Notes: generated from the letters alone by a model not told the origin. A stretch of 32,000 nt of DNA from Candidatus Odinarchaeota archaeon (GCA_016839265.1 JAEOUO010000004.1:223-32222), one strand, 5' to 3'. Positions 20,979 through 32,000 are shown, counted from the stretch's first letter. Numbers and translations are program-made.

Positions 20979-22109
20979 TTATTTGCTTTTTCCTTTTACT
21001 GGTTCAAGATAGTTTTTTATCAAGTAGTTCCAGATCCGTTTTTCTTTCACCTCGATAAGTGTCACCTGCTTTCCCAATATTTTGATTATTTTCTTATCCG
21101 CTTTTCGAGGCCATTCCTCATACCATCTATACTTAACGTTTATTTGATGAGCGTAAGTTACGCTCTTCGATTTATTATAATAGTACTTAGATTCTTTAGT
21201 CACTTCAGCTATCCCTAAAACTCTGCACGCCGAATAAATAATGAAAACATCTCCCTCCGAGATTTGATTTTTGAAATTCCAGAGCTGATCGGTGGTATAT
21301 TTTATTTTAGTCTTTTCACCCCAAACTCTTTTAGCCTGTCGAGCAACTTCCCGTTTAAGTTCACTATATGAACTGAAACGTTTGAGGTCTCCCACTTCAT
21401 TCCATCCAATAGCTACGAATCCATCACCATTATCTTTAATAAATTGGAGCCATTCACTTTTCCAATATCGCGCCTTCTTGCCAGGGGAGATTTTCCAAAT
21501 TTTTTTAGGCTGGGGGCTTATTAATTTCTCTTTTATTTGAACAGGTGATGGCAAAGTATCTTCTTCACCCTTTATTTTAGAAGCTCTCTCGCTTATTTTG
21601 TTAGTTGCACTTGTATATTTTTTAACATCATCTTGAGTTAGATCTGGAGCCGTGTCAAAATAAAATTTGAAAAATTTTTCTGCATCTTTTAGAAATTCAT
21701 TGTTTTTCTCTTCTATTTTTACTAGTACATTTGCTTCCGCATTTTTACTCTGCGCAGCCTTAGTGAGGTTTGAAGAGCCGACCACTATAAATATCGACTC
21801 TCCATAGATTATGAACAGTTTTGGGTGAAAACCACGATTATCCCATCTTCTTATAGTGACCCCTTTTTTAGTTGAAAGCGTTAATAGAGTTTCCGCAGCC
21901 TCTTTATCTGTAATTCCAAGTTTACTAGATAAACCAAACACTATTCTTAGTTAACCACCTCTTTTAATCAACGAGTTAAAGCTTTCCATCAGCGCTTGTA
22001 ACCCGCTTTCTTTTACATAGGCTATTGCAACATCTACTCTAGTTGATTGACTAATTAATTTCGGTAGTTCCTCAGCCAGTGAAGGTCCGTCAAGAAATTT
22101 TATCTCCAT
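20979..22109 (-). pseudogene. PLD (HKD)-nuclease fused to an EVE/PUA-like domain, interrupted by one in-frame TAA; candidate Type IV restriction enzyme
   Basis: ATG 22109 (GGGGGT SD) encodes MEIKFLDGPS...VDVAIAYVKESGL...KRGG. TAA at 21953-21951 is followed in frame by LRIVFGLSS...HPKLFI...GSSNLT...NAEAN. The C-terminal domain has WKISPG, VAIGWN..GDL, GDVFIIYS..VLGIAEV. Confidence 0.8.
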
Positions 22110-22249
22110 AAAAACCCCCATCTTTATCTTTTACTATAATTTAAATTTATAACTTTTAAATAATTTTTATAGTTTCAAAATCCTTGATGATTTTTATAAA
22201 GAAGACCGCTAATTGTCTCATAGAAATTTATTGATTTATGTGGAATATT

Positions 22250-23302
22250 CTATTTAACTTCTAAAGTTAAATCGTTTTCTTGATATCCAAATAATGTCAG
22301 AATCTTTTTTGAAAGTTTAACAATAGCATTAGCACTAAGATTAGTTTCTACGTAAATATCTGTATTACTTATTTTTTCTGGGTGCCTTAACTCATTAGAA
22401 TTTTTAGAAAAATACGGTCTCTTTTTTCCTACCAAATTCAATACCATCCCAAATTGGTTTCTATGAGACAAAAACATGATTTCACATATCTTAATCAACA
22501 TTCCTACCCACGATTTTACTGGATATTTTTCACTCCTAAAAGTAAACGAGATAATCGACTTTCCCGTGTATTCTTCTTTTTCAGAAATTATAGGGGGGGC
22601 TGCCACTTTTGTTTTTGATGGTTTTACTAGTGTGGGGGTAGTAATAGTTTTTAAAAACTGTGCAATTGCTTCGCTATCTGGTTTATAACCGCATATTTTT
22701 TCTGTTGTAACAGACAAAAGTTCAACTAAAATCTCATCCTGCTCTTTTATGATCTTTTCCCAAGCTTTAGGAATACTTTCTTCAATTAATTCCTGTTTTC
22801 GTCGGTTTTTATAGATATTTTCAGCATTTTCTACAGCTTTACTAGAAATTATATTTTGCTTTGCAAGAAACATTTCAAATTTCTCTGCTATGTCTTTCGC
22901 GTCTTGTTCGCATAAATCAATGTTATAAAATTTTCTCTGCTCCCAACTTCCTTCAGTTAAAGGTAGATAAAACCACCAGCTGATCCCATTAGTGAGGATT
23001 GCAAGCTTAACCCCTTCTTTAAATGAATATTTTAAAAGCTGATCTTGATGTTTTTCTAAATCTTCACCAGGCTTCTTGACTTCAATAAAAACCTTGTTTT
23101 TATCACCACACCTGAGAGCGTAATCCACTTTACCGGCTTCAATAGGATATTCAGGATAAACCTCGTCTATATTATAAAAATTCCAACCCAAACAATCTAA
23201 AATTTTCAAAACCACAGCCTGCTTAACAGCCGCCTCATCAAAAAAACTAAGTCTACTATCTTGTTGAAAACTATTTATTAAATCAAATAACCTTTCATTC
23301 AT
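22250..23302 (-). CDS. HsdR-N-type PD-(D/E)XK nuclease with a SeqA-like C-terminal domain
   Basis: N-terminal EAAVKQAVVLKILDCLGW, VYPEY, VDYAL, FIEVKK, QLLKY, AILTNG.SW.FY. C-terminal LVGKKRPYF...HPEKISNTDIYVETNLSA. Confidence 0.8.
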   Translation of the reverse strand: MNERLFDLINSFQQDSRLSFFDEAAVKQAVVLKILDCLGWNFYNIDEVYPEYPIEAGKVDYALRCGDKNKVFIEVKKPGEDLEKHQDQLLKYSFKEGVKLAILTNGISWWFYLPLTEGSWEQRKFYNIDLCEQDAKDIAEKFEMFLAKQNIISSKAVENAENIYKNRRKQELIEESIPKAWEKIIKEQDEILVELLSVTTEKICGYKPDSEAIAQFLKTITTPTLVKPSKTKVAAPPIISEKEEYTGKSIISFTFRSEKYPVKSWVGMLIKICEIMFLSHRNQFGMVLNLVGKKRPYFSKNSNELRHPEKISNTDIYVETNLSANAIVKLSKKILTLFGYQENDLTLEVK

Positions 23303-23616
23303 CCTATCAAATCCTTAACTCTGTATGTCTTTTAAATATATACTTTTAAAATTATTTATATAAAATTTCTATGATTTCTATTTTATTAAACTGATTAATT
23401 TAATTTGCGCTATTACTTAGTTATAAACTTTTATAAATAAAATATTAATACTCCCAGCTAATAATTTTAATCAAATCTATTAAATTTTTAAATCTTAACT
23501 GTTACTTAGCGTTTGATAAAAAACTATTTTTATAGAATATAAGTTAAGTATGATCCTTTACCATGTTAATAAAAAATTATTTAATGTTGAAGAACTCTTT
23601 TATTAATGGGGATTAA
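23303..23616. promoter_or_regulatory. Very AT-rich divergent promoter region; candidate unwinding element
   Basis: Hand count gives 29 G+C in 180 nt (23341-23520, ~16%). Contains several TTTATA/TTTAAATATA boxes. Confidence 0.5.
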
Positions 23617-26600
23617 ATGACATTTACGCTGACAGAACCTACGGCGGCTTCTGAAATTAAGGAGCTTATTAATCAGATTATTCAGGAGGAGAATTTACCT
23701 TTAGACTCAGCAAAAGTGGAGTTAATGGATTCTAGAGGGCATAGACCCGACATAATTATATTCGATCGATTAAATAAACCAATATGCGCTATAGAAGTAA
23801 AACGTCCTTTTATATCCCCGTATCAAATTGAATTATTTGAACAAGCATTACAATACGCTAACACTGAAGGAATCCGTTTCTTCGCAACTTTTAATTTTAA
23901 CACTCTCGTATTATGGGAGACATTTAAAGAAGGGGTTCCAATTAGGGATAGACGATATAAAGAATATTTTACCGCTGATATAATTGATTTACACGATCTT
24001 CTACAGCTCTCAGTCAAGAATAATATCAAAAAGGGTCTTAGAGAATTTTTACAAGACTTAGTAAAACTTCAAGTGGCTAAAAAGACCGAGGAGATTCTGC
24101 CGACTCTTGAATTTGATAAAATCTTCATTGACTATCTTCATTCCCTTTTGAACTCAATGAAAATCCCTTTAGTTACTGAACTCAATAAAAAACTTGATAT
24201 TGATCCTGTTTTTAAAAATAAACTCTTAGAATGGTTAACTACACAAGGATGGGATTCTACATATATAGATGTTAAGGGCGTAATAGATGTTGTAGCCCGC
24301 CAGTATATTTTACTTCTCTTAAATAAGATAATGTTTTATAAAATTTTAAGCTCACGTTATAAAGAGATAAGACCACCTAATTACAAGCTTTTAAGTCTCC
24401 CAGATGAGTTACCTACATTGAAAATACCTGAAGATATCACTGATGGTGGTAATTTACAGCGCATTTTAAAGAGTTTTTTTGAAAAAGTTCTGCTCATAGA
24501 CTATGAAACAATCTACGAATCCGATTTCCTGGATGAGATTAAACTACCAGACCCCCTTGTGTCACCTATAAGAATACTTGTAAATGAATTTGATAAATAT
24601 GATTTCACCAAGATTGACTATGAGGTGCTCGGGAATATTTTCGAACGGCTAATACCTGAAAAAGATCGTCATCTACTAGGCCAATACTTCACAAGATCGG
24701 ATGTGGTTGACCTAATTGTTGCCAGCTGCGTTAAAAATAAAAATGATGTTATTCTCGATCCTGCTTGCGGGGCAGGGACATTTTTAATCCGCGCCTATTC
24801 CCGCTTAAAATATCTTGGTGCTGAAGGTCCTCACAGTAGTTTTCTAAATAAATTATGGGGTATAGATATAGCTAAATTCCCAGCCCACTTAACCACAATT
24901 AATCTTGCTATAAAAGATTTATCGGAAAGAAATAATTATCCAAGAGTGATCTGCTCAGATTTCTTCAAAGTTTCACCAGGGACCAAGATTTACTCACCTT
25001 ATTTTATAACTGAAGGATTAGATAAAAAAAATTCCCGGCATGAACTCCCCTCGTTTAATGTAGTTATGACCAATCCCCCTTATACACGGCAGGAGGAGAT
25101 GGAGGAGAAACTTGAAGAAGGATATAAGAATACCGTAATAGAATTAATAGCAAAAGAAACTGGGATGACACTAGGTAAAAGAAGCAGTATTTACGCTTAC
25201 TTTTTCCTGCATGGAAGCGTTTTTCTAGGCGATGGAGGTAGGCTTGGTTTAATCACATCAAACTCTTGGCTTGATGTAGACTACGGTAAATATTTACAAG
25301 AATTTTTCTTAAAGAATTTTAAAATAAAATATATAATCGACTCTAAAGTAGAAAGATTTTTCGAAGACGCAGATATTAACACAGCGATAACAATCCTTGA
25401 GAAATGCAGAAATCAAGAGGAGCGCGATAATAATATTGTGAAATTTGTAGAGTTGAGAAAGAAGTTGCCTGAAGTTCTCTCATATTTTGGTGACCACGAC
25501 ACTGAATACGAGAAATGGACGGATAAAGAAAGATGGGCGGCTGTAGATAAATTTTTAGCATACCTCGATAAAATAAGCGGCATCACTATAAATGAAGAAA
25601 TAGGAGTAAGAGTCTACCCTAAAAATCAGAGAGAATTATATGAAGAAGGCCTTGAAGAGGGAAAATATGCCGGCTCAAAATGGGGTAAATATATTAAAGC
25701 CCCAGATATCTTCTTTAAAATATTAGAAAAAGGAAAAGACTTATTTATTCCTCTAAAAGATATTGCGGATATTACAGGAGGAATTATAACAGGTAAAAAT
25801 AATTTTTTCTATCTTAGAGAGAGTCAGATAAGAAACTTTGGAATAGAAGAAAAATTCTTGATTCCAGTGATTAAAACTCCTAAGGAATTAGGAAAAATTT
25901 ATTTTACTAAAAAAGATCTGAAATACAAGTTGTTCTTTGTTACGGAGGAAAGAAATAATATTAAAGGAACTAATGCATTAAAATATATTGAATATGGTGA
26001 AAAACAAGGATTCAACACTAACCCAACATTCAAAGCGCGAAAACATTGGTACCAAATACCAGAATTGAAACAAGCTGAACTATTATGGATTGATTTAAGA
26101 GGGGAAAAACATATTTGCCATTTGAACGTCGATAATGTACCATTTGAACATAATTTCTATGGTATAAATCCAAAAAAAATAAATAAAGAACTCTTATGCG
26201 CCTATCTAAACAGCACTCTTTCTTGGTTATTTATAGAAGTACTTGGTAGAAGCAGTTTAGGAGAGGGTGCAATAAGGTTGGTTGGACAGGATCTTAAAAA
26301 TTTTCCTACAATATTGCTTAAAGAGGGGGTGCCCGACTCTTTAAAGATTCAAAAGATTTTTGATAAACTAAAACACAGGGAGATTGAAAGCGTGTTTAAA
26401 GAAGTCGGCGCGAATAAACCCGAAGAAGTTTCCTTAGAAAAAGTTAACCAAGATGTAAGGGAACTTGATAAGGTAATAATTGGTGAAATTTTAGGTTTAA
26501 CTGATGAAGAACAATTAGAGGTTTACAGGGCGGTTGTTGACCTTGTTAAGTCGAGGATAGAAAAAGCCAAGAGCGTTGAGAGAAAAAGCAATAAAGAAGA

Positions 26601-27030
26601 GTTTTCCACGAACATAGACCAGATAAAAGACATAGTTTTGCATGGAATAGACAAGACAATAGTAGATGATGTGAAAAAGTTTATTCCAGAAAATTATGAT
26701 AATAGAGTGATTGAAATTAAAGCTTCGAAGAGTATTGAGGTTAAAGTTGATTTGCACGGTAAATTTAAGTTGGTAAGTGGTGAAGAAGAAGTTGAATTCT
26801 CTACTTTAGAGGAGGCTGAATATGCTAGATATATGTTGATGAGAGGTAAAGAGAGGATGGTAATTCCAAGAGATACGCAAATTTTACGTGATGTTCTTGT
26901 TAAGTTTAAGAAATTGGATAAGGCGATTAAAAATAGGATCAATGAATATTTGAAACAATTAGTGAGTAAGGAGAAAAAACGGAAATTAATAGAAGCTGAA
27001 TTATATAGGAAGATCTGGGCTGCTTTATAG
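23617..27030 (+). CDS. Type IIG fused restriction-modification enzyme (REase + N6-adenine MTase + TRD, Eco57I-like)
   Basis: N-terminal nuclease RPDIII...AIEVKRP...QALQYA, then GQYFT, motif I ILDPACGAGTFL, GIDI and motif IV NPPY. The C-terminal target-recognition region includes LCAYLNSTLSWLFIEVLGR. Confidence 0.88.
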   Translation: MTFTLTEPTAASEIKELINQIIQEENLPLDSAKVELMDSRGHRPDIIIFDRLNKPICAIEVKRPFISPYQIELFEQALQYANTEGIRFFATFNFNTLVLWETFKEGVPIRDRRYKEYFTADIIDLHDLLQLSVKNNIKKGLREFLQDLVKLQVAKKTEEILPTLEFDKIFIDYLHSLLNSMKIPLVTELNKKLDIDPVFKNKLLEWLTTQGWDSTYIDVKGVIDVVARQYILLLLNKIMFYKILSSRYKEIRPPNYKLLSLPDELPTLKIPEDITDGGNLQRILKSFFEKVLLIDYETIYESDFLDEIKLPDPLVSPIRILVNEFDKYDFTKIDYEVLGNIFERLIPEKDRHLLGQYFTRSDVVDLIVASCVKNKNDVILDPACGAGTFLIRAYSRLKYLGAEGPHSSFLNKLWGIDIAKFPAHLTTINLAIKDLSERNNYPRVICSDFFKVSPGTKIYSPYFITEGLDKKNSRHELPSFNVVMTNPPYTRQEEMEEKLEEGYKNTVIELIAKETGMTLGKRSSIYAYFFLHGSVFLGDGGRLGLITSNSWLDVDYGKYLQEFFLKNFKIKYIIDSKVERFFEDADINTAITILEKCRNQEERDNNIVKFVELRKKLPEVLSYFGDHDTEYEKWTDKERWAAVDKFLAYLDKISGITINEEIGVRVYPKNQRELYEEGLEEGKYAGSKWGKYIKAPDIFFKILEKGKDLFIPLKDIADITGGIITGKNNFFYLRESQIRNFGIEEKFLIPVIKTPKELGKIYFTKKDLKYKLFFVTEERNNIKGTNALKYIEYGEKQGFNTNPTFKARKHWYQIPELKQAELLWIDLRGEKHICHLNVDNVPFEHNFYGINPKKINKELLCAYLNSTLSWLFIEVLGRSSLGEGAIRLVGQDLKNFPTILLKEGVPDSLKIQKIFDKLKHREIESVFKEVGANKPEEVSLEKVNQDVRELDKVIIGEILGLTDEEQLEVYRAVVDLVKSRIEKAKSVERKSNKEEFSTNIDQIKDIVLHGIDKTIVDDVKKFIPENYDNRVIEIKASKSIEVKVDLHGKFKLVSGEEEVEFSTLEEAEYARYMLMRGKERMVIPRDTQILRDVLVKFKKLDKAIKNRINEYLKQLVSKEKKRKLIEAELYRKIWAAL

Positions 27031-27921
27031 TATTTTGTTTAGTGCTTGTTTTAGTGTGTTTGTTTGTTGTGTGATGTTTTTCCAGGGGTTTGGTGTGTTT
27101 TGTAGGTGTTGGAATATGTTGTTTATGTTGTAGGTTTTAGCGTTTAGGTTTTTGTTTTCTAAGTCTTTCCATGTTATGGGTGTTGCGATGGGCGCTGTTT
27201 TTTTAGCGCGTAGGGAGTATGGTGCGACTGAGGTTTGAGCGTATGCGTTTCTGGTTGTGTCTATGAAGAGTCTGTTTTTTCTTTTTTCTTTTCGTTGTTC
27301 GACGGTGATTTTATCCGGGTTGTTTTTAGCTATGTTTTTAGCGATTTTCTGGGCGAATAGTCGTGTTTGCTCGAAGGTGTGTTCTCTTTCTATTGGGATG
27401 ATTACGTGGACTCCTTTGGATCCGGTTGTCATAATAAAAGTGTTTAGTTCTAGCTTATCTAAGGTTTCTTTGATTAGGAGGGCGGTTTGCCGGACTGATT
27501 CGAAGTCTTCTGGTGTAGCTGGGTCTAGGTCGAATACTATTTTATCAGGGTGGTTTGGTTTATCGTATTTGGCGAGCCATATGTGGGGTGTGATGCAGGC
27601 TTGCTCGGTGATGTATAGGAGGGTTTCCTTGTTTTGGCATAACAGGTATGTGGTGTCTCCTCCTGTTTTATTATCTAGCTTGATTTTTTCTATCCATGGG
27701 GGGAAGTATTCCGGAACTTCTTTTTGGAAGAAGCCTTCTTTGCTTATTCCATCGGGGAAGCGGTGCATTGTTAATGGTCGATCTTTTAAGTATGGTAGCA
27801 TTAGATTCGCTATTTTTTCATAGTATTGTATTACTTGGAGTTTGGTGATTTTATCGTCCGGGTATAGTATTTTATCAGGGTTGCTGACTTGGATGACTTG
27901 TTTTCCTGCTTTAATCTGCAT
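27025..27921 (-). CDS. ligD: LigD-type primase-polymerase (NHEJ polymerase domain), stand-alone
   Basis: Motifs SNPDKILYP, RPLTMHRFPDGI, FFQK, VFDLDP, TTGSKGVHV, FIDTTRN and VAPYSLRA. Confidence 0.93.
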   Translation of the reverse strand: MQIKAGKQVIQVSNPDKILYPDDKITKLQVIQYYEKIANLMLPYLKDRPLTMHRFPDGISKEGFFQKEVPEYFPPWIEKIKLDNKTGGDTTYLLCQNKETLLYITEQACITPHIWLAKYDKPNHPDKIVFDLDPATPEDFESVRQTALLIKETLDKLELNTFIMTTGSKGVHVIIPIEREHTFEQTRLFAQKIAKNIAKNNPDKITVEQRKEKRKNRLFIDTTRNAYAQTSVAPYSLRAKKTAPIATPITWKDLENKNLNAKTYNINNIFQHLQNTPNPWKNITQQTNTLKQALNKIL

Positions 27922-27923
27922 TT

Positions 27924-28928
27924 TTAAGCCTCTGGGATTTCTTTTACTACTGTGCGGGGGTCTTTGTCTCTTCTAACTCCGAGTAGACGTGGATGGCGTA
28001 GTTTACCGGTTTTAGTCCACTCTGTGAAGCCTACTTCTACTACGATTTCAGGTTTCACCCAGGTGACGTTTTTCTCCCCTGTTTTATCATCGGTGGCGGG
28101 GGTGTTTTGTTTTAATGCTTCCAGTTGCCTGGTTAACTGGATTAAGAGCGTGCGGTTGAATCCTGTTCCGACTTTTCCAGCGTAGATGAGTCTATCTTTA
28201 TCATAGTATCCTACTAGTATCGCGCCTAATCCGATGCGTGAGCCTTTAGGCGGAGTGTAGCCGATGATCACGAACTCCTGTTCGTTAACGCATTTGAATT
28301 TCAACCAGTCTGTTGATCTTTTATGCTGATATTCGCTGTCAGCTCTTTTAGCGATTACTCCCTCCCATCCTTTTCTACAGGCTTCCTTATAGTATTTTAC
28401 GCCTTCCTTCCATATATGCTCGGTGTATCTTAACGGATCTTGGTAGGTTAAATGTTTTCTTAATAATTCTTTTCTTAATGTTAATGGGAGTTTTTCGATA
28501 AGATAGTTTTCAATGTATATTAGGTCGAAGATGTAGTAGTAGACTTTTATCTTTGATTTTAAAGCTTCCTCCCTGTTTTTTATTCCGATTCTTTCCTGTA
28601 GTTTGGAGAAACTGGTGTTGTCGCCTTGGAAGGCTACGATTTCACCGTCTATGATGAAGTCGGGGGTTTTCTGTTTTTCTAAGGCTTCAACGATCTCCGG
28701 GTAGGTGTCGCTGATGTCTTTTCTATTTCTGGATAATAGTTTGACGTGACCGTTTTTCTTAAATGCTAAGCATCGCTCTCCGTCTAGTTTACGCTCATAT
28801 ATCCAGTTTTCATCCGAGAACCGTTTACTGGTTAGGGTTGCTAGCATGGGGTCAACCCAGTCTGGTACGCTTGTTTTCACGAGTAGATTCCTGTATTTCT
28901 GGTCTACTTCGTCTAGGATGGTGTTCAT
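27924..28928 (-). CDS. ligD: LigD/LigC-type ATP-dependent DNA ligase (catalytic core + OB domain), stand-alone
   Basis: Motifs PMLAT, ERKLDGER (KxDG), IDGEIV, FDLIY, EGVIAK, WLKFK, GKVGTGF and LRHPRLLGVR.DK. Confidence 0.93.
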   Translation of the reverse strand: MNTILDEVDQKYRNLLVKTSVPDWVDPMLATLTSKRFSDENWIYERKLDGERCLAFKKNGHVKLLSRNRKDISDTYPEIVEALEKQKTPDFIIDGEIVAFQGDNTSFSKLQERIGIKNREEALKSKIKVYYYIFDLIYIENYLIEKLPLTLRKELLRKHLTYQDPLRYTEHIWKEGVKYYKEACRKGWEGVIAKRADSEYQHKRSTDWLKFKCVNEQEFVIIGYTPPKGSRIGLGAILVGYYDKDRLIYAGKVGTGFNRTLLIQLTRQLEALKQNTPATDDKTGEKNVTWVKPEIVVEVGFTEWTKTGKLRHPRLLGVRRDKDPRTVVKEIPEA

Positions 28929-30214: not shown

Positions 30215-30460
30215 ATGATGATTATGCGTGAAGATAAATCCACCCTTAAAATCGACTGCACTGGTTTATATTGTCCTCAACCTGTTTTCATAACTAGAAC
30301 AACTTTGGATGAAATGGCTTCCGGGGAGATTCTAGAAGTGTTAGCTGATGATCCTGCAGCTGAATCCGATATTAAAGCCTTAGTTGAAGCTTTAGGCCAT
30401 GAGCTTTTATCTTTTAGTAAAGAGGGTGGTGTTTTAAAGTTTCTTATTCGAAAGAGGTGA
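30215..30460 (+). CDS. tusA: TusA/SirA-family sulfur carrier
   Basis: IDCTGLYCPQPV (CPxP), GEILEVLADDP and DI. Confidence 0.92.
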   Translation: MMIMREDKSTLKIDCTGLYCPQPVFITRTTLDEMASGEILEVLADDPAAESDIKALVEALGHELLSFSKEGGVLKFLIRKR

Positions 30461-30467
30461 TTGAACT

Positions 30468-30836
30468 ATGAGTGGTGTTAAACATATTTTATACGTGCAG
30501 ACGAGTGGACCTGAAAATCCTGAGCGTCTTTACGCTCCGTTTATTTTAGCGTCAACTGCTAGAGCTATGGGTTATAACGCTACCATCTATTTTCTGATTA
30601 AAGGAGTTGAAACTGTTAAGAAAGGTGTAGCTGAGAGAATTAAGCTGGGGAGTTTTCCATCTCTTAGAGAAGTCATGGATCAAGCTATTAAACTAGGGGT
30701 TAAAATTCAAGTCTGCGAGCAATCTTGTGCTCTTTTAGGTATTCCTAGAGGTGAATTTATACCTGAAGCGGAGATTGTGGGCGCTGCTACTTTGAATAAG
30801 CTTTGCTTGGAGGCTGATGCAGCGCTGTATTTCTAA
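30468..30836 (+). CDS. DsrE/TusD-like sulfur-relay protein
   Basis: Motifs TSGPENPERLYAPFILASTARAMG, IYFLIKGV, VCEQSC and IVGAAT. Confidence 0.85.
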   Translation: MSGVKHILYVQTSGPENPERLYAPFILASTARAMGYNATIYFLIKGVETVKKGVAERIKLGSFPSLREVMDQAIKLGVKIQVCEQSCALLGIPRGEFIPEAEIVGAATLNKLCLEADAALYF

Positions 30837-30857
30837 AAATATATATTGTTGATTTAT

Positions 30858-32000
30858 ATGAGTAGGGTTTACTTAGATTACGCTGGAGCCTGTCCTGTAG
30901 ATGAACGGGTTTTAGAAGCTATGAAGCCTTTTATTCTTAAACCAGGGAATCCTTTAGCCCTCCATGAGGAGGGGCAGATTGCTAAGCGTGGAATTGAGGA
31001 AGCCCGTCAGTATATCGCTCATCTTATTAACGCGGATAACCCGGATGGTGTGGTTTTCACTAGCGGGGCGACTGAATCTAATAATCTGGCGATTATAGGT
31101 ATGGGTGAGCGTTTAAAAAGTAAAGGCAATCATATTATCACCTCTAACATCGAGCATATCTCGGTTATTAACTCTTTGAAGAAACTTGAGAAAAACGGGT
31201 TCGAAGTAACAAGGATACCGGTAGACGGAGACGGGGTTATTCGACTTGATTTACTTGAGGAAGCTGTTAGAAATGATACCGTGTTGATTACGATTCAAGC
31301 AGCTAACTCGGAGATCGGCGTTATTCAGCCTTTAGAAAAGATAGGTGAAATAGCTCGGAGGCATGGGGTGGTTTTTCACTGTGATGCGACGGCTGGTTTA
31401 GGTCAAATGACTATAGACGTGAAGAAAGCGAATATAAGCTTGCTTACGATGTCTGCTAACAGTATTTATGGTCCTCAAGGAGTTGGTGCTTTATACTTAG
31501 CCTCTAATATCCGTCCGATTCCATTGATTTTAGGCGGAGGCCAGCAGCGGGGTTTCAGATCTGGAACGGAGAATGTGGCAGGTATTATCGGTATGGGAGA
31601 GGCAGCTCGCCTAGCAGCGGTTGAGATGAGAGATGACTGGAAGCGGCTTAAAGTTTTCAGAGATCGTGTAATAAAGGAGATTCCTGAAAGAGTTAGAGAT
31701 GTTCATCTTAACGGGCATCCTGTTAAAAGGACGCCTAACAACGTGAATTTTCGAATAGATTATGTGGAAGGGGAGTCGATTGTTTTAAGCTTGGATATTT
31801 TGGCAGGTATAGCTGTTTCAACCGGCGCCTCCTGTGCGAGTCTCACCTTGGAGCCTAGCCATGTTATTTTAGCTTTAGGTGTTCCACCTGAGAAAGCTCA
31901 GGGTCTTCTCCAGGTTACGATGGGTCGGTTTACTCGTGAGGAGGATGTGAACCGGCTTTTAGACGCTCTTCCAGGTGTTGTGGAGAGGCTTAGAAGAATG
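30858..32000 (+). CDS. iscS: IscS/NifS-family cysteine desulfurase homologue lacking the PLP-binding lysine; 3'-truncated by the window edge and absent from the ORF track
   Basis: My translation from ATG 30858 is open to the window end: VYLDYA, GNP..LH, FTSGATESNN, IEH, ANSEIGVIQP, FHCDAT, MSANSIYGPQGVGALY, GGGQQRGFRSGTEN, AVSTGASCAS (catalytic Cys) and PSHV. Confidence 0.93.
   Translation, partial: MSRVYLDYAGACPVDERVLEAMKPFILKPGNPLALHEEGQIAKRGIEEARQYIAHLINADNPDGVVFTSGATESNNLAIIGMGERLKSKGNHIITSNIEHISVINSLKKLEKNGFEVTRIPVDGDGVIRLDLLEEAVRNDTVLITIQAANSEIGVIQPLEKIGEIARRHGVVFHCDATAGLGQMTIDVKKANISLLTMSANSIYGPQGVGALYLASNIRPIPLILGGGQQRGFRSGTENVAGIIGMGEAARLAAVEMRDDWKRLKVFRDRVIKEIPERVRDVHLNGHPVKRTPNNVNFRIDYVEGESIVLSLDILAGIAVSTGASCASLTLEPSHVILALGVPPEKAQGLLQVTMGRFTREEDVNRLLDALPGVVERLRRM

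Follow-up and report, generated by a model that had tools for sequence, protein, structure and literature searches.

The closest known system to the one described here is the IscS2-IscU pair of Archaeoglobus fulgidus (PDB 4EB5, 4EB7, 4HVK; D199K variant 4R5F). Its IscS has Asp at the position of the Schiff-base lysine, holds PMP, lacks desulfurase activity and provides its loop Cys as a ligand of the [2Fe-2S] cluster on IscU (PMC8918507; PMC7585200). The published model for this pair draws on free sulfide and does not mention carriers, and the assembly of [2Fe-2S] on IscS-IscU without desulfurase activity is stated there as an open question (PMC8918507). The MIS machinery (MisS-MisU), described as the least studied Fe-S system (PMC13066941), also pairs a type I IscS-like protein with a single-domain IscU in an operon without hscAB, iscA and fdx, and MisS is defined as a cysteine desulfurase. 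In the E. coli relay (PDB 3LVJ) an active IscS passes sulfur to the CPxP-Cys protein TusA and from there to TusD of the DsrE-fold TusBCD triad, the genes being unlinked; no carrier other than TusA is known to dock at the loop Cys of IscS (PMC2854127), and TusA competes with IscU for IscS (PMC11302665). In Metallosphaera cuprina and other sHdr systems a DsrE3A protein (PDB 3MC3) lies beside TusA, both with a conserved carrier Cys, and the sink is the sHdr sulfur-oxidising complex. DsrE3A, 3B and 3C give sulfur to TusA and hardly accept it back (PMC4175335, PMC11094781), and polysulfide can serve as the direct source of sulfur for TusA and DsrE3B/C (PMC11094781, PMC4175335). A Lys-less IscS adjoining iscU has also been reported in Methanosarcina acetivorans (IscS1, MA0808; PMC7585200); no match to this type of locus was found among 20 further loci sampled.

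We compared these systems with a locus at the end of a 32,000-nucleotide stretch of DNA from a Candidatus Odinarchaeota archaeon (the window), where a TusA, a DsrE and an IscS-family protein (IscS* hereafter) are encoded on the same strand with gaps of 7 nt (tusA-dsrE) and 21 nt (dsrE-iscS*). The features of the locus are as follows.

30215..30460, + strand: tusA, sulfur carrier of 81 aa with a CPQP motif (PF01206, E 7e-24)
30468..30836, + strand: dsrE, DsrE3A-like sulfur carrier of 122 aa (PF02635, E 9e-18)
30858..32000, + strand: iscS*, pseudo-desulfurase, residues 1-381 of 394 (best sequence and fold match A. fulgidus IscS2)
31155..31157, + strand: His100 (E. coli His104, which stacks on the B6 ring), kept, as in 120/120 Lys-less homologues
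31383..31394, + strand: DATA motif, residues 176-179, with Asp176 kept and Ala179 as the Gln183 equivalent
31458..31463, + strand: Asn201-Ser202 replacing His205-Lys206 (E. coli numbering), no Schiff-base lysine
31833..31835, + strand: Cys326 (TGT), mobile-loop cysteine in STGASCAS, kept; candidate persulfide carrier or cluster ligand
31911..31913, + strand: Gln352 replacing the substrate-carboxylate Arg354, a second active-site lesion by alignment to canonical IscS
G000:C5:48-437, + strand, outside the window: iscU with a probable ATT start (NifU_N E 4e-51; TIGR03419 above cut-off)

The gene iscS* starts at the ATG at 30858 and encodes 394 aa in total, the last 13 codons and the stop lying on the next contig (C5:3-44), as the window ends with contig C4; the full-length gene is represented by P0001 / L114. 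The gene iscU begins 3 nt past the stop, and its product is complete, with its three Cys as well as the ligands Asp and His. A Logan contig assembled independently (L114, SRR26201534) matches the operon and the C4/C5 break with 100% identity, and holds tusA-dsrE-iscS(394 aa)-iscU uninterrupted. The two last genes are contiguous in L003, L004 and L115 as well, and C4 and C5 follow each other in the order seen in two same-genus genomes; the full operon reads tusA-dsrE-iscS*-iscU. C4 opens with a copy, one mismatch apart, of the final ~120 bases of C1, and the three contigs are probably joined as C1-C4-C5. The probable ATT start of iscU lies 7-8 nt after a GGAGG in the genome holding the window (G000), in G002 and in the genome of L115, with ATG at the same codon in G001, and gene callers place the start at a later GTG, losing a conserved N-terminal S-K-T-Y-S (G000:C5:35-50, L001, L004, L115). 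Another Asgard iscU (L023, G034:C91:526-939) diverges after its first Cys into an intein-like (Hint) segment.

Elsewhere in the window, a split LigD-type end-joining system, comprising a gene for a primase-polymerase domain and one for an ATP-dependent ligase, lies at 27025-28928 on the - strand and is also present in L115. It is preceded at 20979-27030 by a restriction-modification-like stretch with the following genes.

23617-27030, + strand: Eco57I-type/N6 methylase fusion
22250-23302, - strand: HsdR_N protein
20979-21941, - strand: PLD-domain nuclease-like protein

The replacement of the lysine by Ser202 (AGT, 31461-31463, within S-A-N-S-I-Y-G-P-Q-G), the DATA motif at residues 176-179 in place of DAxQ and the intact loop Cys326 (TGT at 31833), all noted in the initial annotation, stand on re-examination, as does its assignment of tusA-dsrE-iscS to one operon, by Pfam matches, shared strand and the directly upstream position of the carrier genes. 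At 31461, where a Lys codon (AAA or AAG) in the reads would have contradicted the annotation, the identical independent contig has a Ser codon. Ser202 is also kept, as AGC or AGT, in two same-genus genomes and one 76%-identical relative. Values of dN/dS for iscS* were 0.056 and 0.072 against the two same-genus genomes, which shows purifying selection. As the independent contig is identical, the Ser codons in relatives are synonymous and dN/dS is low, iscS* is neither a sequencing error nor a decaying gene. The predicted fold is full and confident (pLDDT 90), with the mobile Cys loop at low confidence in the model.

A. fulgidus IscS2 was both the best PDB sequence match of IscS* (E 4e-122) and its best fold match (TM 0.91-0.92, 50-52% identity). 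The two proteins share the lack of the Schiff-base Lys, the preceding Asn, the DATA motif (DATAS in AfIscS), the loss of the substrate Arg, the retained loop Cys and an adjacent iscU; the A. fulgidus-type pseudo-desulfurase with a retained loop Cys that had been proposed for this gene is thus what sequence and fold matches return. The Schiff-base Lys is absent from all 120 best homologues (Asp in 110, Ser in 4, Gln in 3 and Glu in 3), and His100, Asp176 and Cys326 are present in all of them. The nearest named homologue comes from Odinarchaeia, which with the phylum neighbours suggests an Asgard host of the Odinarchaeum type. IscS* differs from A. fulgidus IscS2 in having Ser rather than Asp at the Lys position, with Gln in the sister group. 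In the phylogenetic tree it is nested in a 46-row SSND clade with Ferroglobus P0027/L112 (support 99, and 93 once the trait columns were removed); the Ser group lies within the AfIscS2-type clade and the Gln forms are its sister. From these alignments Ser is a local variant of the clade-wide Asp. The Lys-to-Ser change on which the initial annotation centred is therefore real as regards Ser, but the loss of Lys is clade-wide (Asp in 110/120) and Ser only local. IscS* is a real and conserved AfIscS2-type pseudo-desulfurase with a local Asp-to-Ser change, a type that was already known.

The lesions extend well past the lysine. When compared with 79 canonical IscS, Thr13, Gln183, His205 and Arg354 (E. 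coli numbering) are all replaced in the Lys-less set. Arg354, which binds the cysteine carboxylate in the published desulfurase mechanism, is found in 79/79 canonical and 0/120 Lys-less proteins; the Gln of DAxQ is likewise present in 79/79 canonical proteins and is Ala179 in IscS*. With the Lys and these four residues lost, IscS* is very likely inactive as a cysteine desulfurase, and as Arg354, Gln183, His205 and Thr13 would still be missing, an S202K revertant, earlier proposed as a check, should remain dead and is unlikely to be informative. The protein retains the aminotransferase class V fold, the type I SxGSAC loop Cys (Cys326), Thr72 and Asn150, and as the ring-binding His100 and Asp176 are kept it may, by analogy with A. 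fulgidus, hold PMP and ligate [2Fe-2S] through its Cys. Its residues 1-381 fall under the NCBIfam equivalog cut-offs (415 vs 531 for TIGR03402 and 390 vs 643 for TIGR02006). Unlike MisS, IscS* has lost catalytic residues and gained carrier genes, and the operon differs from the published A. fulgidus model in including tusA and dsrE.

The TusA of the operon has the features of its family, namely the CPxP carrier Cys (Cys20, 30272-30274), a DD motif and the Pfam TusA domain, and scores below the enterobacterial TusA equivalog cut-off (65 vs 78). Aligned to E. coli TusA (1DCJ/3LVJ_C), it keeps the equivalents of Cys19, Arg27, Asp45 and Asp51. In DsrE, Cys83 (30714-30716) is invariant in 12 operon orthologues and Cys87 is not conserved. 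The best solved relative of DsrE is DsrE3A SSO1125 (3MC3, E 3e-17), whose first Cys is aligned and second (Cys101) unmatched; the DsrE3A subgroup assignment rests on this one best PDB match. The protein is DsrE3A-like rather than a member of a TusBCD triad as in E. coli, and its neighbours are IscS* and IscU rather than the sHdr complex of M. cuprina. For the IscS-TusA interface we compared W45/E49/D52/R220 of IscS and M24/R27/R31/F58 of TusA. The docking residues of E. coli are partly kept: R27, D52 (as E), R55 and R237 have equivalents here, W45, R220, R31 and F58 have none, and the Arg patch is reduced. An apparent charge swap in the genus (IscS E49 to R, TusA R31 to D) was considered as coevolution and set aside, as no covariation was seen across 40+ pairs. 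Prediction of a complex of the IscS* dimer with TusA, folded without alignments, gave a score of 0.00 and is not evidence either way.

To place the operon in a wider context, loci were sampled from Asgard, Bathyarchaeia, Halobacteriota, Actinomycetota and Thermodesulfobacteria, counting as neighbours genes on the same strand within 1 kb. By this measure tusA accompanies 79/87 IscS genes lacking both Lys and Arg and 1/123 canonical ones, and is near none of 20 further canonical methanogen-type iscS copies. It is missing within 1 kb at the remaining 8/87 Lys-less loci; iscU lies within 1 kb at 76/87, and dsrE in roughly half, many loci being without it. The linkage to tusA is seen in Asgard, Bathyarchaeia, Archaeoglobi-like, Actinomycetota and Thermodesulfobacteria genomes, and Ferroglobus placidus has tusA-iscS(Asp)-iscU. 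The proposed coupling of the pseudo-desulfurase to TusA/DsrE carriers is thus supported by the operon itself and by tusA at 79/87 such loci. The contrast with IscU drawn in the initial annotation ("rather than only IscU") does not hold, with iscU 3 nt downstream here and within 1 kb at 76/87 Lys-less, Arg-less loci.

A Thermodesulfobacteria group (L049, L146-L153) has Leu, Gln or Ser in place of the Lys, has lost Arg354 and carries tusA at 9/9 loci. In this group iscS always directly follows a distinct TusA (CPIH/CPMH) and usually precedes iscU. It branches apart in free trees, which suggested an independent loss of Lys; we do not claim such a loss, since the AU test fails to reject one common Lys-less clade (p = 0.57). 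Its sister in the tree is L124 (G028:C79), a Lys-intact iscS-iscU-tusA-dsrE2-like locus. L124 was the only canonical IscS found with carriers. Hence the tusA-iscS* counts are not independent and the linkage may represent one to three events; it could predate the loss of Lys. What the counts do show is long retention of the linkage.

A second degenerate IscS group keeps Lys and lacks Arg354 (23 loci). Here tusA-dsrE is present at 5/23 loci and an adjacent SufS at 10/23; 3 more have an intact SufS within 3 kb, and neither occurs within 4 kb of at least 3 others. Archaeal members adjoining iscU (L129-L134, L166-L178, L181, L025, L027-L029) have also lost Gln183, and many His104. These proteins are probably another dead type, one that a screen on Lys alone misses as Lys is retained with Arg354 and Gln183 lost. 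The recurrence of either TusA or SufS suggests that a dead IscS may depend on some other donor of sulfur.

Taken together, we read the locus as a four-gene Fe-S assembly operon, a variant of MIS/IscSU in which IscS would no longer be a source of sulfur but a conduit and scaffold partner, with sulfur flowing from DsrE by way of TusA and the Cys loop of IscS* to IscU. We consider this the best model and somewhat better than an even bet (probability roughly 0.55). In this relay the DsrE3A-like protein would pick up sulfane sulfur and hand it to TusA, in the direction that DsrE3/TusA pairs favour; TusA would load it onto Cys326, and the Cys326 loop would swing it to IscU, the reverse of the IscS-to-TusA flow in E. 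coli. Inward flow is the simplest reading, as a dead IscS has no sulfur to send and TusA docks at the IscS loop Cys. Transfer from DsrE to TusA, and not the reverse, is suggested by analogy with the closest solved relative, DsrE3A, which gives to TusA and hardly accepts from it. At least for Archaeoglobi the upstream donor would be an inorganic one (polysulfide or sulfide-derived), and in this organism it could also be an unlinked intact SufS. Against the model stand the E. coli TusA-docking residues, which are only partly kept without consistent charge covariation, and the possibility that TusA may serve ThiI/SepCysS, encoded upstream of tusA in two Archaeoglobi-like genomes. The competition of TusA with IscU for E. 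coli IscS, the many loci without dsrE, the 8/87 without tusA and a linkage of perhaps one to three events also speak against it. No report of transfer from TusA to an IscS Cys was found in the literature searched. More tentatively, and at somewhat below even odds, the same genes may represent a widespread undescribed route (Asgard, Bathyarchaeia, Archaeoglobi and some bacteria) by which DsrE3-TusA would bring inorganic sulfane sulfur to a dead IscS and on to IscU without cysteine.

The same gene order could be explained if IscS* were a scaffold only, giving a Cys ligand to an IscU that uses free sulfide, while TusA/DsrE buffer reactive sulfur or feed other enzymes. This is the published proposal for A. 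fulgidus (PMC8918507), and it agrees with the Lys-less loci without tusA, with a docking surface only partly conserved and with a linkage that may derive from one ancestral operon. However, tusA is retained by iscS* in about 90% of loci in several phyla, even after transfer into bacteria; other neighbours change while tusA stays, and canonical IscS almost never has it. We therefore regard a scaffold-only role as rather unlikely.

An alternative differing from the relay only in the source of sulfur is that an unlinked SufS persulfidates TusA or DsrE, which pass the sulfur to IscS*-IscU. The host here differs from A. fulgidus in possessing both an intact SufS and an SMS scaffold: the SufS-type desulfurase is encoded at C1:469993-471288 (SGHK, RAGYHC), unlinked to the operon, and is present in G001 as well. 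In G017 and G027, and beside many Arg-less IscS, an intact sufS directly adjoins the genes, next to tusA-dsrE-iscS* in the two named genomes. On the other hand, IscS* is the only desulfurase-like gene in three single-contig Archaeoglobi-like genomes (G203, G221, G229) that carry tusA-iscS*-iscU, their other class V matches being SepCysS, serine-pyruvate-type aminotransferases or weak matches, and SepRS and SepCysS of G000 make cysteine on tRNA from non-cysteine sulfur. A cysteine-fed relay in trans is rather unlikely. The cysteine-independent supply suggested by the initial annotation is plausible for the family, but this organism has an intact SufS. Besides SepRS and SepCysS, G000 encodes SufB/SufC (SMS), CysRS, ThiI, a TtuA-like PP-loop enzyme and rhodaneses, and judged by gene content both cysteine-derived and inorganic sulfur routes are available to it. 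A second pseudo-desulfurase of SufS type lies at G000:C1:486689-487906, without Lys (FSSCIG) and with the catalytic-type Cys kept (RSGMQC); its counterpart in G001 (L281) is 82% identical. A second carrier island at G000:C1:1034188-1036080 has tusA and a dsrE2-like gene directly adjoining a dsrE/F/H (TusBCD-like) triad.

The sink originally proposed, tRNA thiolation or cofactor synthesis fed by outward export via TusA/DsrE, is clearly unlikely. E. coli TusA carries sulfur for tRNA and Moco (PMC2854127), in G221 and G229 thiI and sepCysS share a cluster with tusA-iscS*-iscU, and ThiI and the TtuA-like enzyme of G000 are possible recipients. Yet a dead IscS would produce no sulfur that could be exported, TusA does not pass sulfur on to proteins of DsrE3 type, and the second, unlinked tusA-dsrE2-dsrEFH cluster could supply such sinks. 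As the constant neighbour is iscU and not thiI, Fe-S assembly is the best-supported sink. The complete cluster in G221 and G229 (L294, L302) reads tauE-sepCysS-DUF169-thiI-tusA-iscS*-iscU with a divergent sulfite-reductase-like gene, and suggests a role for DUF169 in sulfur assimilation.

Residual or altered catalysis, in which PMP and 3-mercaptopyruvate enter at the ketimine step and no Lys is needed, is very improbable. AfIscS does hold PMP, in the published mechanism it is His and Cys rather than Lys that act in persulfide formation, and His100, Asp176, Thr72 and Asn150 are kept; against this, none of the 120 Lys-less proteins has kept the substrate-carboxylate Arg, nor has the Thermodesulfobacteria group. 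The conserved Arg/Lys 357 corresponds to E. coli R359 and not to the lost R354, and the PMP/3-mercaptopyruvate cycle was largely rejected. The idea that IscS* is one half of a heterodimer with an active IscS encoded just downstream fails for this genome, as iscU rather than a second iscS comes next, and neither G000 (97% complete) nor the single-contig G001 yielded a further type I IscS; several other Asgard genomes do have an unlinked canonical IscS beside the dead one, but AfIscS is homodimeric in its complex with IscU, and we hold such pairing to be highly improbable. Sequencing error or a decaying pseudogene, for which the position at a contig end could speak, has a negligible chance in view of the identical independent contig, Ser in relatives, dN/dS of about 0.06-0.07 and pLDDT of 90.

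The dead IscS of AfIscS2 type is itself not new, but no precedent for its linkage to carriers or for the inward-relay model was found in the literature searched, where no link between TusA/DsrE and Lys-less IscS appeared, most subscription papers lying outside the search. If true, a DsrE3-TusA relay would explain how an IscS-IscU pair of the A. fulgidus type is supplied with sulfur. The conserved tusA(-dsrE) neighbours offer a concrete answer in four proteins that could be reconstituted, and would show IscS as a sulfur acceptor. The label 'cysteine desulfurase' is probably wrong for many of the archaeal genes that bear it, among them that of the only IscSU pair in this Asgard genus, and this affects counts of MIS and inferences on the sulfur source in the archaeal relatives of eukaryotes.
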